IMG/VR virus record: IMGVR_UViG_3300012979_000032
Span: 28,915 to 92,914 of that record
DNA length: 64,000 nt
Direction: 5' to 3' (one strand)
Source: a virus
Lineage: Duplodnaviria; Caudoviricetes
Positions 58,702 through 64,000 of this stretch are shown in pieces. A program made the translations under genes and the position numbers. Each line of letters starts with the position of its first letter. Within the stretch, counting starts at the first letter, position 1. The notes below the pieces were generated by a model. The model did no database searches. It had not been told where the DNA came from and worked only from the letters and a program-made list of their open reading frames with translations.

Positions 58702-59262
58702 ATGAGTATGTTTGATTCTAATGATTTCCTGAAGCTGATCCAGGAGGGCAAGATCTCCCCTGATACTATCACTCGTGATTTCACTGATGCTCTGAATGCG
58801 GCCCTGGCTGCGAAGAAGCAGGCGGACGAAGCTGCTGCTAAGAAGAAGGCCGAGGAAGAGGCTGCTCGCAAGCGTGAGGAGCTCAAGGCTGCTCTGGAGC
58901 AGGCCAAGGCCAAGTCCAAGCTGCGCGAGGCCGATGATATCGCTGCTCGCATCAATGCGTTCATGAAGACCCACTATGCGGATGTATTCGCCGCAGCTGG
59001 CGAGGAAACCGAGCAGGTTACCGGTGCCCAGTTCATTGAGGCTCTGGATGCGTCCATGGGTATGATTCGTAAGCTGGTTGAGCTGAAGAATCATCTGGAG
59101 GGTATGACTAAGAATATGGAGAAGCCTAAGGCTTGTGGCCATACTGGCAACTGTGATTGCGGCAAGATGTCTGATCCTTTTGCAGACATCTTCGGCATGA
59201 AGGAGCCGCCTATGCCTCATGATCCCATCATGGATTTCCTGAAGGCTAATAAGCTGCTGTAA
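58702..59262 (+). CDS. Coiled-coil hypothetical protein (186 aa)
   Basis: Promoter 58640, RBS, Ala/Glu/Lys-rich. Confidence 0.8.
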   Translation: MSMFDSNDFLKLIQEGKISPDTITRDFTDALNAALAAKKQADEAAAKKKAEEEAARKREELKAALEQAKAKSKLREADDIAARINAFMKTHYADVFAAAGEETEQVTGAQFIEALDASMGMIRKLVELKNHLEGMTKNMEKPKACGHTGNCDCGKMSDPFADIFGMKEPPMPHDPIMDFLKANKLL

Positions 59263-59668
59263 GATATACTGTTCCAGGAGAGAAGGAAAATAAGACTGGG
59301 CCTTCTCTCCAACGGGAACGGTGACGAGGAAAAATGATCACACAGTCTGGCCGAGGGGTGGCCAGGGCACTATCTCAATTTCTCACGATTTCTTACAATT
59401 CCCTACACTCCTTTACAATTCCTCTATAATATACTATAATTATTTCTCATAATTTTGTATCTGTTCCCCCCTACCTCCCTATCCCTAGGGAGGTTTTTCT
59501 TTTACCCCCACGCCTTCTCTCCCTCGCACGCAAAAATCCGCGCAGGAAAATAATTTTTAGCCTGAAGCGAAGCGCGTAGCGCGAAGCGGAAGGATAAAAA
59601 TTATTTTCCCCTCTATTACTATTTCTATTGTAACCGATGTTCCCAATTTTGTAAAGCGACCAGTTTTA

Positions 59669-59815
59669 TAGAAATTTTTGACCAAAAATAAGAAAAATTA
59701 ACACGATTTTCAACGTTCGTCAAGTGGTGTTAGGATGAGTGGTCAGAAAATTTTGACCATCTCTATAGAAAATTTTGACCACGAGTATAGAAAATTTTGA
59801 CCACCTCATCCTAAC
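59669..59815. repeat. Iteron cluster A with flanking inverted repeat
   Basis: YAGAAAWTTTTGACCA at 59669, 59744, 59766, 59788; GTTAGGATGAG...CTCATCCTAAC. Confidence 0.9.
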
Positions 59816-59822
59816 CTATACG

Positions 59823-60464
59823 TTAAACCCACTTTTCGCTCACGGTCAACTCAGGCAACTTATTTTTCACCCATTCTACCGAGATTCCCTCAGACGAGAT
59901 CTTATACGACAGTAGTCCCAAACGTGCGAGAATTTCTAGGGTATCATTAACAACCACATTATTCGATGTGGTTCCAGTAGCAATGCCAATGAAATCCTTA
60001 ATCTACCTCAATGTAGTCTCGAACCCCTCGCAGGCATTGGCGTAATACCTATTAAATAAATAGATATAAATATTGATACTGTTTTTCTACATGACATTCA
60101 TCAACTTCGCCAAGGTCTAATACTCTACTAGATTAGCCTCCATAGCATCTAAAGTGGTCAGATAATAATAGTTCTCATTAGCCCCTTCCTTAATGAGACC
60201 CTTATCCTCCAAGTACTTAAAATACTTTGCAATAGTCTTCCGTGCCATTGTCTTCTCGACCGTTCCGTCCGCAAGAGTCCTCGTGAAATCCTTCTCGATC
60301 GCGGTCCATTTAACTTTGCGCTTCTCAATGATTCGCTATGGCGAATCAATGGTCTCTCTTTCCGAGTTACACTATAGCCACGCATAAAGTAAATCGCAAT
60401 AATCTTTTTCTCTCGTTATAGATGAAATTGCCGGCATTTGACGTGAATTTTTTTCAATTTTCAT
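59823..60464 (-). CDS. TAG-recoded double winged-helix protein, probable replication initiator (213 aa, 5 TAG)
   Basis: GGGAGGTG RBS, ATG 60464, TAA 59823; ARKTIAKYFKYLEDKGLI and L..IKDFIG...VNDTLEILARLGLL wHTH-like motifs; flanked by iterons. Confidence 0.75.
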
Positions 60465-60548
60465 TTCATTTTCACCTCCCTCCCCCATAAGTGAATTTCG
60501 AAATGAATTTCTTAATTGGTTCTGCCCCATTATTCACGACCAAAAGTA

Positions 60549-60629
60549 TAGAAATTTTTGACCATTTCAATAGAAATTTTTGACCAAAAATATAGAAAAT
60601 TTTGACCATTTATCAGAAATTTTTGACCA
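60549..60629. repeat. Iteron cluster B
   Basis: YAGAAAWTTTTGACCA at 60549, 60571, 60593, 60614 (22, 22, 21 bp spacing), between the minus-strand promoter (~60655-60683) and the gene. Confidence 0.9.
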
Positions 60630-60777
60630 TTTTCATCCCCCACGCCCACATCTATATTATAACATATTTTTGTTTTCAAATCAACTATATGCGGCATTAG
60701 ATTCTCACTTGATTTTTTGAAAATAAAATGTTATAATATATATAAAGAATAAGAGAAAAAATAAGGAGCGGGGTATT

Positions 60778-61143
60778 ATGAAAGCATTCGTCGCAATCAT
60801 CTTCGTCATTTGTATTCTTCTCGTCGTTGGAGTTGTTTTCATCGCAGCGGATAGCGGATCTGGTACAGTAATCGCAGTGACTGATGAGCCAGGAGTGATT
60901 ATGGATCTCTACAAACACTCCTATCTGCGCACCATCAACGCCGGCAAAACTAAGACTTATTACACCGACATTGACTATTTTGCCGAAGTAATGGTTAATT
61001 CTCAAATCCTTCAAGTTGAAATTACTGAACGAGAATACTTCACTCTTTATACTGGCGAAGAAGTAATTCTTACTACTTATACCACCGAAGGTGGTATAAG
61101 TAAGAATATTTATTATACTTACAGCATAAAAGTTTTTGATTGA
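60778..61143 (+). CDS. Membrane-anchored hypothetical protein
   Basis: N-terminal TM helix; promoter ~60709. Confidence 0.75.
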   Translation: MKAFVAIIFVICILLVVGVVFIAADSGSGTVIAVTDEPGVIMDLYKHSYLRTINAGKTKTYYTDIDYFAEVMVNSQILQVEITEREYFTLYTGEEVILTTYTTEGGISKNIYYTYSIKVFD

Positions 61144-61203
61144 CTTTTCTGAAAAATTATACTATAATATATTTATAAGATAAATAAAAGGAGAGATACC
61201 CCC

Positions 61204-61629
61204 ATGGAGAAAAGAACTCATATTGCAATTTTTAACGTCAATGATGCTTTGTCTCTCCAGCTTAATGCGATCAAAATCCGCGACGAGGAAGATATTCCAA
61301 AAGCGATTGATATTGCCATCGCCCATGCAAATCACCAAATCGAATCAGCTGCGGCCAAGGGCCATAACTGCACTCCCATTGATTTCAGTCCCGCGATTTC
61401 ACAATTCCCCGACTCTCTGCGCGTTGAACATTGGTCTATGGTTATTGACCATGTTCATGGGCTTTTGCGCGGAGCCGGTTATTGGGTCCACAAGACCAGA
61501 ATCGCAAAGGGTCGTGGCTCGGCTCTTGTAATTTGGGATCCGCTTAAGGAAGAGCAGTGGCAGAGAGCGCATGAAACACTTGCGCCTGAACCTGCGCGTA
61601 AACGTAGCATTTTTAACTGGAAAAAGTAA
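61204..61629 (+). CDS. Hypothetical protein
   Basis: Promoter ~61140, AAGGAG RBS. Confidence 0.8.
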   Translation: MEKRTHIAIFNVNDALSLQLNAIKIRDEEDIPKAIDIAIAHANHQIESAAAKGHNCTPIDFSPAISQFPDSLRVEHWSMVIDHVHGLLRGAGYWVHKTRIAKGRGSALVIWDPLKEEQWQRAHETLAPEPARKRSIFNWKK

Positions 61630-61730
61630 ATATGTAAGTGAGGACGAAAGTTCTCACTTGATTTTTATAAAAAAATATGTTATTATATATATGTAAGATA
61701 AAGCAAAGGACAATGAAAGGGGAATGAAAA

Positions 61731-62303
61731 ATGATCTACAGCACCAATCATTACAATAAGTCTCAGCGCGAACAGCTTGGCTTTGGTGAGGCTGGTTATA
61801 TCATGATCTGCAAAGGTGATACTTATGCTTATAAGGATTGGCTGAAGGAACAGGGTGCCTGCTATCGTAAGTGGTGGGGTTGGGCTTTCGCCTCTACGAT
61901 TCCCCTCCCTGAGCTCCCCGCAGGTATCACCGCGATTCGTCTCGATTGGGATAAGGTTGGCGATGCCGACGGTATGAATCTCTTCCCCGAAGAGAAGATT
62001 AAGTTGGTTGTAGATTCTCTTATCTATGACCCCACTCCCTCCAAGTATGTCGGTTCTATTGGCGACCGTCTTGAGCTGACTCTGACTGTTCAGCGAGTCA
62101 TTGATCTCGATGGCTACTATGGCCCCTCCCATATGCACGTCATGGTTGACGCCGATGAAAATGTCTTTGTCTGGACCACTGCGTCCAAGAAGTGGGAGAC
62201 GGGCAAGACTTACCATCTCCGTGGTACTGTCAAAGAGCACCGTACTTACCGTAACACTCAGCAGACTTGTTTGACCCGATGCATTGAAATTAAGAAGAAG
62301 TGA
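61731..62303 (+). CDS. Protein with C-terminal OB-fold-like domain
   Basis: SKYVGSIGDR...GYYG...VFVW...LRGTVKEH..YRN..QT.LTRC. Confidence 0.7.
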   Translation: MIYSTNHYNKSQREQLGFGEAGYIMICKGDTYAYKDWLKEQGACYRKWWGWAFASTIPLPELPAGITAIRLDWDKVGDADGMNLFPEEKIKLVVDSLIYDPTPSKYVGSIGDRLELTLTVQRVIDLDGYYGPSHMHVMVDADENVFVWTTASKKWETGKTYHLRGTVKEHRTYRNTQQTCLTRCIEIKKK

Positions 62304-62314
62304 GGTAATTTTAT

Positions 62315-62527
62315 ATGAAAATGTGGGCACATACCCGGGATTCTCGTGAAGATCTCGCCTTCACTTGCTTCGTCGTTCATGAAGAAGAACTCAATGAAAT
62401 CGTCGACAAGATTTGTAGCGGTGAACTCCATCCGTCTACCTGTCAGTGGCTGTCTTACGACGATATTTGCTACATTGAGAAGGAAGTCGAAAAGCGCCTT
62501 GGAGTTCCTTGTGATCTCTCCCTGTAA
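62315..62527 (+). CDS. Hypothetical protein
   Basis: GAGGT RBS, TAA stop. Confidence 0.7.
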   Translation: MKMWAHTRDSREDLAFTCFVVHEEELNEIVDKICSGELHPSTCQWLSYDDICYIEKEVEKRLGVPCDLSL

Positions 62528-62598
62528 GCCCTACTTGATTTTCTTATAAAAATTTGTTATAATATATATGTAAGATAAAGAAAAGAGGAATGATAAGT

Positions 62599-64000
62599 AT
62601 GGGTCTTTTGGACATGGTAACTGCGGAAGAACGGGAACTCATTATGAACCAGATTAGAAATTACTCACTTTCTAACGGCGATCGTGCCGACATGGACGTG
62701 TGGAATTTCAATCACGTTTTCCGTGAATGGGGTTGGGCCAAAGGTCAGTACCTCTATCATATTTTCAAGGCGGCGACCGGCGAAGAGACTTTGATCCTGC
62801 GCAAAGAGGTCGAATTCGCGAAAGATTCCGACGAAATCGCCGAAGAACTGGATAACATGGCTTATCCGTCCTGTTTCAATGACATCATCGGCATTTTCGA
62901 TAATCTAGTTCATTATACCGATCCTTTCGATTGGCAGCGTGGATCATTGGAAATTGAAGATCGAGTGCCGGAGTGCCTGCGCCAGGTATCGTCGGACTAT
63001 GCCTACGATATGCGGAAAGCGATTCTCCTGTTGACTTGCATCCCTACCTTGGCCTGTAATGTTTATACTGGCCGCACCGTAGAAATCCCCATCCCGAACG
63101 GCAAAAAGCTGAAAATCAATCAGGGTAGCCGAGCCGTAAAAATGCTTGGTAAACTGGTTGAAGCATTTGGCTTTGACAAGGCTGAGTTTGAAAATTATCG
63201 AATTTCTCATTCTCAGATTCTGAACCAGAAGAAGCTCAAGGGAACCCTGTGCCTTTCTATCCATCCGCTTGATTATATTACCATGAGCGACAATGACAGC
63301 GGTTGGGAATCCTGTATGAGTTGGGAAAATCAGGGTTGCTATCGTCAGGGTACCGTAGAAATGCTGAACTCTGATTGTGTTGTGGTTGCTTATCTCGAAG
63401 CAGAAAGACCCATGAGGATGACGCGAGAGCTCTCCTGGAATAATAAGAAGTGGCGCGAGTTGTATATTGTTACTCCGGATGTCGTTACCAATGTAAAAGG
63501 TTATCCGTATTGTAACTCCAACTTGACCGCTGAAGTCCTTAACTGGTTGCGCGAACTGATCCAAAAGAGTGGTTTGGAACAGTTTAGCGAGTACGATAAT
63601 AAAATTTACCATCACGGCGGCGAGGAAGAGTTTGATGACCTTCTGCGCGAACGAGAAATCACTCTTCGATTCCATACTGGATTGATGTATAACGATTTCG
63701 GTCATCCTTACCAGTATTGCCTCGTGCGCTCCTCCCTTCCTAATCAGAGTCATAGAGAAATCAATTATTCTGGCGCATCTGAATGTATGCTTTGCGGCGA
63801 ACTCGACCCTGAGTTTGTGAATAATTCTGAAGCAATGAATCTGGTTTGCCGTAGTTGCGATAATGTTGTGATTTGCGCTTGTTGCGGCGAACCTGTCTAT
63901 GACCATGATTATGTATATATCAACGATGAACCCATTTGTATCCCCTGCTCCGAAGATTATTATGTCTATGATGCTGTAAATGAAGAAGCCATTCATAAGG
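62599..64000 (+). CDS. Large hypothetical phage protein with C-terminal CxxC repeats (runs off window)
   Basis: Promoter ~62536, ATG 62599; LSIHPLDYITMSDN..GWESCM motif; the listed 62944..63996 minus ORF is its antisense shadow. Confidence 0.8.
   Translation, partial: MGLLDMVTAEERELIMNQIRNYSLSNGDRADMDVWNFNHVFREWGWAKGQYLYHIFKAATGEETLILRKEVEFAKDSDEIAEELDNMAYPSCFNDIIGIFDNLVHYTDPFDWQRGSLEIEDRVPECLRQVSSDYAYDMRKAILLLTCIPTLACNVYTGRTVEIPIPNGKKLKINQGSRAVKMLGKLVEAFGFDKAEFENYRISHSQILNQKKLKGTLCLSIHPLDYITMSDNDSGWESCMSWENQGCYRQGTVEMLNSDCVVVAYLEAERPMRMTRELSWNNKKWRELYIVTPDVVTNVKGYPYCNSNLTAEVLNWLRELIQKSGLEQFSEYDNKIYHHGGEEEFDDLLREREITLRFHTGLMYNDFGHPYQYCLVRSSLPNQSHREINYSGASECMLCGELDPEFVNNSEAMNLVCRSCDNVVICACCGEPVYDHDYVYINDEPICIPCSEDYYVYDAVNEEAIHK

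Follow-up and report, generated by a model that had tools for sequence, protein, structure and literature searches.

Iteron-regulated theta replicons of the Rep_3 type, such as P1 (oriR/incC-repA-incA), F (ori2/incB-repE-incC), R6K (pi) and pPS10 (RepA), together with the lactococcal replicons of the pCI305/pWV02 type with their 3.5 repeats of 22 bp, are the described systems closest to the locus analyzed here. Phages also encode origin-binding proteins of their own, among them lambda O, SPP1 G38P and P4 alpha, the last with its ori and crr. The locus lies in a 64,000-bp stretch (the window) that corresponds to bases 28915-92914 of one viral contig of 92,914 bp (IMG/VR record IMGVR_UViG_3300012979_000032). 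It consists of a minus-strand gene for a Rep-like protein of 213 amino acids (aa), readable only when TAG is decoded as glutamine (code 15), and of arrays of a short repeat on both sides of this gene. We consider it somewhat more probable than not that the locus is an origin-binding initiator module of a large gut phage, with a layout like those of P1, F and P4 and a putative origin function.

The gene and its ribosome-binding site (RBS) are as follows.

59823..60464, minus strand: Rep-like gene, 213 aa, with five in-frame TAG codons read as Gln; first winged helix at about residues 20-105, second at about residues 115-200.
60473..60479, minus strand: RBS GGAGGTG, 8 nucleotides (nt) 5' of the ATG, read from the sequence.

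The open reading frame (ORF) at 59823-60464 is interrupted by five TAG codons in code 11 and open only with TAG read as Gln, in agreement with a preliminary description of this DNA, which had reported a 213-aa gene hidden in code 11 with TAG at five of six Gln codons. These TAGs occupy codons 31, 43, 116, 126 and 154, and Q9 is encoded by CAA. As homologs begin at a shared MxIxKNSRQMP motif, the start was placed at 60464 and not at the ATG at 60530. A word-indexed search returned 534 homologs of 200 to 215 aa, and 218 clusters at 50% identity were obtained by an exhaustive search. Three of the five TAGs (Q31, Q126 and Q154) fall on invariant Gln columns, and the homologs in 12 recoded IMG/VR relatives contain three to eight TAGs each, with the same column being TAG or CAA/CAG depending on the phage. 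A 31%-identical homolog from a 175-kb phage is free of in-frame TAG and terminates in TAG; this phage looks standard-code, as its 41 large ORFs contain only five in-frame TAGs and it lacks a suppressor tRNA. Recoding thus depends on the code of the phage rather than on the protein family. Short protein fragments that end exactly at TAG positions are also deposited in databases and are the footprint of code-11 gene calling. The gene is confirmed as real, conserved and TAG=Gln-recoded. Assembled contigs from RNA libraries cover the gene and its leader for the most part (in one run, 59884-60635) and are compatible with transcription from the predicted promoter, although assembled contigs cannot prove transcription; DNA contigs cross both ends. 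In a phage collection, tblastn identified one unannotated match (31% identity) and blastn over 8 kb gave no match, while a scan seeded with one distant family member found no locus.

Eight exact copies of TGGTCAAAAWTTTCT were identified, all on the minus strand, which is the orientation of the gene. The repeats measure 15-16 bp, and their spacing amounts to two helical turns. Four are upstream and 3+1 downstream.

60537..60629, minus strand: upstream iteron array, four copies (60629-60615, 60608-60594, 60586-60572 and 60564-60550, at spacings of 21/22/22) plus a half repeat, between promoter and RBS in the predicted 5' untranslated region (UTR).
59740..59803, minus strand: downstream iteron array, three copies (59803-59789, 59781-59767 and 59759-59745) at 22-bp spacing.
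59657..59684, minus strand: fourth downstream iteron (59684-59670, giving downstream spacings of 22/22/75) plus half repeat TGGTCG.

The number, spacing and placement of the repeats (eight, mostly 22 bp apart, four between promoter and gene and four downstream) were all as first described. Eight matches were reached in none of 100 shuffles, and no further copy of TGGTCAAAAWTTTCT is present in the 92.9-kb contig. A half repeat, TGGTCG, follows the last full copy of each array at a distance of exactly 22 bp (60542-60537 and 59662-59657). Repeats in the same orientation and at 22-bp spacing flank the gene in all relatives, and their type changes with the identity of the protein: TGGTCAAAAWTTTCT accompanies proteins at least 58% identical, TTGTCCRAAAWTTTCT those at 44 to 47% and ACACCTCCAWAWTTTACCCA the one at 31%. 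That the repeat sequence shifts as the protein diverges argues for direct binding, and from this covariation we infer that the repeats are the binding sites of the protein, which is consistent with their earlier designation as its iterons. In a complete 197-kb relative that assembled as a circle, the repeats occur at the Rep-like gene only. With sites only around its own gene, the protein is not a global regulator. The third downstream copy is followed by GACCA, which creates the palindrome TGGTCA-N8-TGACCA (59759-59740), a possible dimer operator, and a 17-nt inverted repeat, GTTAGGATGAG(G)TGGTCA, brackets the three downstream iterons (59815-59797 and 59744-59728). Neither the bracketing inverted repeat nor the palindromic last iteron was seen in relatives, and an Rfam search of 59000-61000 returned nothing but a chance miRNA-like match on the inverted repeat around the downstream iterons.

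The arrays also bear on the main competing explanation, namely, that the protein is an autoregulated transcription factor, made only after the code switch, that shuts off its own promoter, controls neighboring units (the divergent operon at 60778-64000 as well as the hairpin and promoter-like site at 59545-59655) and has no role in replication. The position of the upstream array within the gene's own 5' UTR has the geometry of a roadblock, and the last downstream iteron and half repeat adjoin the promoter-like site, as this explanation would have it. However, repeats found only around the gene would limit the regulon to the gene and its immediate neighbors, 80 bp separate the divergent promoter from the closest iteron, and sets of four to six same-orientation repeats with two-turn spacing on both sides of a gene are typical of initiators and centromeres, not of operators. 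We regard a purely regulatory role as unlikely, and it is weighed further below.

An AlphaFold2 model built from a 23-sequence alignment (predicted local distance difference test, 87.8; predicted template modeling [TM] score, 0.85) contains two predicted winged-helix domains, and this confident model bears out the two winged-helix-like segments noticed earlier. A structure search was run against 48,161 representative PDB chains, and the best 50 rows were examined. Within these rows, only R6K pi bound to its iteron (2nra_C; Z 7.7, 180 residues, 5.1 Å) and RctB (5ubf_A, domains 2-3; Z 6.8, 167 residues) were aligned over both domains, while RepE (2z9o_A; Z 6.5) was aligned over one domain only. 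Full-length matches in BFVD (TM 0.5-0.66) comprised unnamed proteins and proteins named "Replication initiator protein," "Replication protein O" and "replisome organizer," and the named look-alikes among predicted viral structures are mostly replication initiators. Among 62 family members, 14 matched phrog_8102 (best, 1.8e-09) and seven matched phrog_678 (1.1e-06), both of which are labeled replication initiation; PHROG 186 was matched by five, and PHROG 270 was also among the matches. Overall, the secondary PHROG matches of the family members are mostly to replication-initiation families, and few members matched PHROGs of transcription regulators. The protein looks and is arranged like a Rep_3-type initiator, while membership by sequence fails.

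The leading PHROG match carries another label. phrog_3396, annotated as ScpB, matches the protein at E 5.8e-7 and 60 of the 62 family members, and the profile also matches genomes with a true ScpB. The protein might accordingly be a centromere-binding or DNA-organizing protein (a partition adaptor or an ScpB-like protein) that coats the arrays to segregate, condense or position DNA. ScpB likewise has two winged helices in tandem, type II and III partition systems have centromeres made up of direct-repeat arrays, and a weak profile match to the archaeal centromere protein AspA was obtained (E 0.004). However, Pfam SMC_ScpB (PF04079) gave no match at E<=1, and no ScpB chain is among the best 50 structural rows. 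Further, ScpB is not a sequence-specific DNA binder, whereas the repeats here change with the protein. No ParA-type ATPase was found in three complete relatives (145-197 kb) and no NTPase among the neighbors, and these relatives look virulent, as no tyrosine integrase was found in any of the three. A centromere-binding or ScpB-like role is therefore improbable in our view, and the ScpB label of phrog_3396 is probably wrong for this phage family.

If the locus is an origin with its initiator, it could act as follows. Monomers would occupy the iterons, each placing one of its winged helices on one half-site, as pi, RepE and RepA do, and binding to the upstream array in the 5' UTR would both autoregulate the gene and melt the adjoining AT-rich DNA, onto which the phage's own DnaB and Pol III replisome would be loaded. 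The downstream array and its palindromic site, along with the AATAG repeats and the hairpin conserved in relatives, may form a second element for control or priming, comparable to P1 incA, F incC or P4 crr, and might act by pairing with the upstream array ("handcuffing"). The 197-kb relative encodes its own DnaB and Pol III alpha, and the minimum of cumulative GC skew in one complete relative falls 3 kb from the gene. The remaining features of the locus are as follows.

60656..60684, minus strand: sigma-70/sigma-A-type promoter TTGATT-17-TG-TATAAT of the Rep-like gene, predicted; position not conserved in relatives.
60705..60764, no strand: extremely AT-rich tract (87% AT, within the top 0.04% of 60-bp windows in the 64 kb), a candidate DNA-unwinding element.
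60709-60737, plus strand: divergent twin promoter TTGATT-17-TATAAT, predicted to drive the plus-strand genes, inside the AT-rich tract.
59627..59655, minus strand: promoter-like TTTACA-17-TACAAT abutting the last half repeat, predicted; not conserved in relatives.
59608..59630, minus strand: AATAG pentamer repeats ending in GGGG, conserved directly 5' of the hairpin in relatives.
59545..59609, no strand: AT-rich inverted repeat of 18 pairs with a GC-rich apex (GCTTCGC/GCTACGC); DNA fold z score, -3.4.
59473..59503, plus strand: intrinsic terminator that ends the plus-strand early gene train before the module.

The predicted extended -10 promoter (60684-60656) faces the Rep-like gene across the upstream array; as a prediction it matches the sigma-A promoter, TTGATT-17-TATAAT, of the preliminary description, the coordinates of which were off by one base. 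Between the outermost upstream iteron and the AT-rich tract lie 75 bp. In 15 of 16 loci, an AT-rich hairpin with this apex motif occupies the same position and has 15 or more pairs (15-18 in all), a length reached by only 1.6% of control windows, and the stems comprise at least eight unrelated sequences. As it has no U-tract, the hairpin is not an ordinary terminator; it is possibly a cruciform or unwinding element, a priming signal or an RNA element. At 59412-59503 on the plus strand, a near-consensus promoter (TTTACA-17-TATAAT) is followed 33 nt on by a canonical terminator, an arrangement that would give a transcript of about 50 nt lacking an ORF.

Several results weigh against an origin at this site. 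GC skew, which the preliminary description had suggested as a check, does not place a switch at the locus. The cumulative minimum of the window lies at about 36 to 37 kb, 23 kb away, where gene orientation flips, and in two complete relatives the minima are 21 and 13 kb from the gene. Those gaps are filled by a low-skew array of early cassettes, so that the locus coincides with a knee of the curve and not with its minimum; the skew here tracks gene orientation and transcription. No DnaA box was found in 59000-61300, and in the complete 197-kb relative DnaB and Pol III alpha are encoded about 100 kb from the locus. The AT-rich tract doubles as a pair of divergent promoters, the order of promoter and iterons is not conserved in relatives, and an initiator that is untranslatable early would be counterintuitive for a lytic phage. 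With respect to the fold, Z values of 6.8 to 7.7 fall in the range that the tool calls common, and single-domain winged helix-turn-helix (wHTH) chains of the CAP/FNR type lead the structural lists (Z about 9 over about 65 residues). Foldseek returned nothing from PDB at E<=0.001, and PDB sequence searches with two profiles gave weak single-wHTH matches only. Rep3_N (PF01051) did not match the protein at E<=1, was not among the 25 most-matched of 49 Pfam families for the 62 family members, and was not found at E<=0.1 in a six-frame search of four genomes. Neither DnaB_2 nor any curated initiator family matched, PF07261 was absent from the four genomes, and the Pfam matches obtained are to generic wHTH families only.

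Part of this evidence can be read in favor of the transcription factor described above, since the best single-domain folds are regulators of the CAP/FNR/CodY type (Z 8-9), the Pfam matches of the family are to wHTH regulator families, and the locus is unmarked by GC skew. Against it, the look-alikes of the protein at full length, both structural and in PHROGs, are initiators, and the positions of the promoters relative to the arrays vary while the arrays, the AATAG repeats and the hairpin are conserved. The earlier interpretation as an origin and its initiator is supported in part: the winged-helix fold, the iterons and the initiator look-alikes agree with it, and the missing Rep_3 sequence signal and DnaA box do not. 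An initiator module remains the reading that we favor.

The contig and its neighbors bear on one more explanation, in which the protein serves another role at a fixed site, such as recognition of a pac site, or exclusion or incompatibility by titrating or blocking the origins of related phages. This contig and 6 of 13 related IMG/VR contigs end 0.2 to 4.5 kb from the gene, and by its TAG content the protein would be a late one, like packaging proteins. However, the contig ends lie on both sides at variable distances and cut genes, adjacent repeated, high-depth modules break assemblies, and the circular assembly of the complete relative has its junction 84 kb from the gene; apart from one member's match, the family shows no resemblance to small terminases. 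A fixed-site role of this kind is very improbable, and contig ends near the gene were rejected as genome termini in favor of assembly breaks in a region of repeated cassettes. In four metagenome runs, the contig depth at 61446-61913 and 62382-62615 was 10 to 40 times that of the flanks, and many loose contig ends occur at 61658, 62535 and 62583. These segments look like modules shared by many phages or repeated promoter cassettes and probably cause the assembly breaks near the locus. The divergent neighbor at 61731-62303 (plus strand) encodes a 190-aa product with a C-terminal OB fold of the nucleic-acid-binding type (Z 7-8 to RPA, SSB, the RecG wedge and AspRS). As PHROGs 30451, 2319, 3628 and 27218 match both this product and the divergent neighbor of the 31%-identical homolog, the synteny of the OB-fold gene is conserved, which speaks for the initiator reading.

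The contig, with a CheckV completeness of 52%, is about half of a large TAG=Gln-recoded gut-phage genome whose relatives are 145 to 197 kb. The possibility, raised in the preliminary description, of a plasmid-prophage replicon was not borne out, as a PLSDB search gave no homolog, neither an integrase nor ParA was found in the three complete relatives, and the relatives are phages of 145 to 197 kb, two with large tRNA arrays and one with its own DnaB and Pol III alpha. Close relatives are present, as assembled contigs, in metagenomes from bovine and other animal guts. Matches in GTDB were rejected as a guide to the host because they are contigs of metagenome-assembled genomes from five unrelated taxa and represent binning carry-over.

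In stop-codon-recoded phages, early genes fit either code and late genes are recoded, and in the published model in-frame stops postpone translation until the code switch (Borges et al., bioRxiv 10.1101/2021.08.26.457843; Peters et al., PMC9523058). Replication genes use the alternative code variably and are mostly recoded in Lak phages, and no recoded initiator/iteron module is described in the same study (Borges et al., bioRxiv 10.1101/2021.08.26.457843). Recoding control beyond structural and lysis genes, which the preliminary description had presented as an extension, is thus already published (Borges et al., bioRxiv 10.1101/2021.08.26.457843). In total, ORFs of at least 100 aa amount to 17.6k aa with code 11 versus 27.6k aa with TAG=Q. 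The late genes of the contig are open only when TAG is a sense codon; the morphogenesis block on the minus strand then consists of closely packed large ORFs, one of which is 4,550 aa with 79 TAGs. From 37 kb to the end of the window, small plus-strand ORFs are found at a GC content of 0.45 to 0.51; none of the 57 plus-strand ORFs at 37-64 kb has an in-frame TAG and two terminate in TAG, so that they are identical under either code. Glutamine codon choice also differs along the window. The early plus-strand ORFs at 37000-59300 prefer CAG to CAA (138:41) at a GC content of about 0.47, and the late minus-strand genes at 1-37000 prefer CAA to CAG (408:175), with 170 TAGs in addition, at about 0.36.

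The statement that the Rep-like gene is the only recoded gene among code-neutral neighbors held for 37-64 kb of the window but not for the phage as a whole. Apart from it, two minus-strand TAG-containing ORFs in this region have weakly positive coding scores, and both lie beneath plus-strand ORFs (60697-61338 under 60778-61143 and 62665-62913 under 62590-63999); a convincing RBS was found on none of the other TAG-containing minus-strand ORFs at 37-64 kb. A 77-aa TAG-containing ORF at 59217-59450 (minus strand) was considered as a second recoded gene and rejected, as it has no RBS and a negative coding score, is of low complexity and does not resemble the genes that lie downstream in relatives. 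Between one and four TAG-carrying genes in the same orientation follow the hairpin in relatives, whereas in the window the Rep-like gene is alone. Beyond the window, 35 of 67 large nonstructural ORFs carry TAG in the 1-110 kb block of the 197-kb relative, which includes DnaB and the tRNA array; its Pol III alpha gene has no in-frame TAG and its DnaB frame has two.

The TAG load of the Rep-like gene is exceptional within the contig, with TAG at five of six Gln codons compared with a share of 0.23 in the pooled late genes (maximum, 0.43; P=0.003). Among ORFs of at least 150 aa in the complete 197-kb relative, the homolog ranks first by TAG share and second by TAG density, and in other relatives TAG makes up roughly 55 to 85% of the gene's Gln codons, as counted from translations. 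Here codon 31 is the first TAG, and in several relatives it is codon 9. A host that uses the standard code would therefore produce no more than a 30-aa peptide from this gene. Synthesis of the full-length protein would have to await expression of a phage suppressor tRNA-CUA, and although early transcription from the host-type promoter may be possible, activity would be delayed to the phase after the switch. No tRNA, a suppressor tRNA-CUA included, was found in the contig, which is 52% complete; complete relatives carry 35 (145 kb) and 26 (197 kb) tRNAs with anticodon CUA present in each, the suppressor of the 197-kb relative being at 77570-77659. Gating of this gene by the code switch is what we infer, in line with the published model and not new in principle. 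The further proposal that phage DNA replication starts, or changes its mode, under control of the code switch, and that this is conserved in the family of 145- to 200-kb recoded gut phages, is tentative and less likely than not.

If the module is an origin, it would provide a defined ori/initiator pair for large uncultured recoded gut phages, useful for mini-replicons and genome engineering, and it is the first candidate origin for these phages among the searches made here. The main value of the locus is as a compact test case for code-gated expression, in that recoding as an expression timer is reduced to one 213-aa regulator, five TAGs and one binding site. The annotation of phrog_3396 is also corrected, from ScpB to what is more likely an iteron-binding, initiator-like family, and it is apparent that gene callers using the standard code split this gene and leave its fragments in databases as separate "proteins." Nothing is overturned, as initiators that act on iterons have been described before, and so has recoding outside structural genes.

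Compared with described systems, the protein resembles ScpB in its size of about 200 aa, its two winged helices and its PHROG profile match, and differs in having no Pfam match and in its sequence-specific repeats; no ScpA/SMC context was identified, and no search was aimed at these partners. Published recoded phages share with this one TAG=Gln decoding and, in its complete relatives, a suppressor tRNA-CUA. Unlike in those phages, the most TAG-dense gene here is neither structural nor a lysis gene, and it encodes a small predicted DNA-binding protein, alone and antisense inside a standard-code early block. With lambda O, SPP1 G38P and P4 alpha the locus has in common a phage-encoded winged-helix origin binder (predicted here) with iterons, family matches to PHROGs 8102, 678, 270 and 186 and the BFVD names Replication protein O and replisome organizer, and, with P4, two iteron clusters on either side of the initiator gene. 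However, the iterons of lambda and SPP1 are inside the initiator gene and those here flank it, no helicase-loader, primase/helicase or DnaD-type domain is present, and no adjacent P/DnaC-like gene was recognized. Differences from the Rep_3-type replicons are the lack of Rep3_N sequence similarity and of DnaA boxes, the setting in a phage of up to about 200 kb that is probably virulent, has a relative with DnaB and Pol III alpha and has no PLSDB homolog, a gene readable only in code 15, and the conserved long hairpin and AATAG repeats by the distal array. In common with these replicons are a small protein of two winged helices (about 210 to 300 aa), repeats in the same orientation at about 22-bp spacing, and an array that overlaps the expression signals of the gene, which allows autoregulation, with an AT-rich tract adjoining. 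As in P1 and F, the arrays flank the rep gene and each ends in a terminal half repeat, and among the best 50 structural rows the best full-length match of the protein is R6K pi on its iteron.

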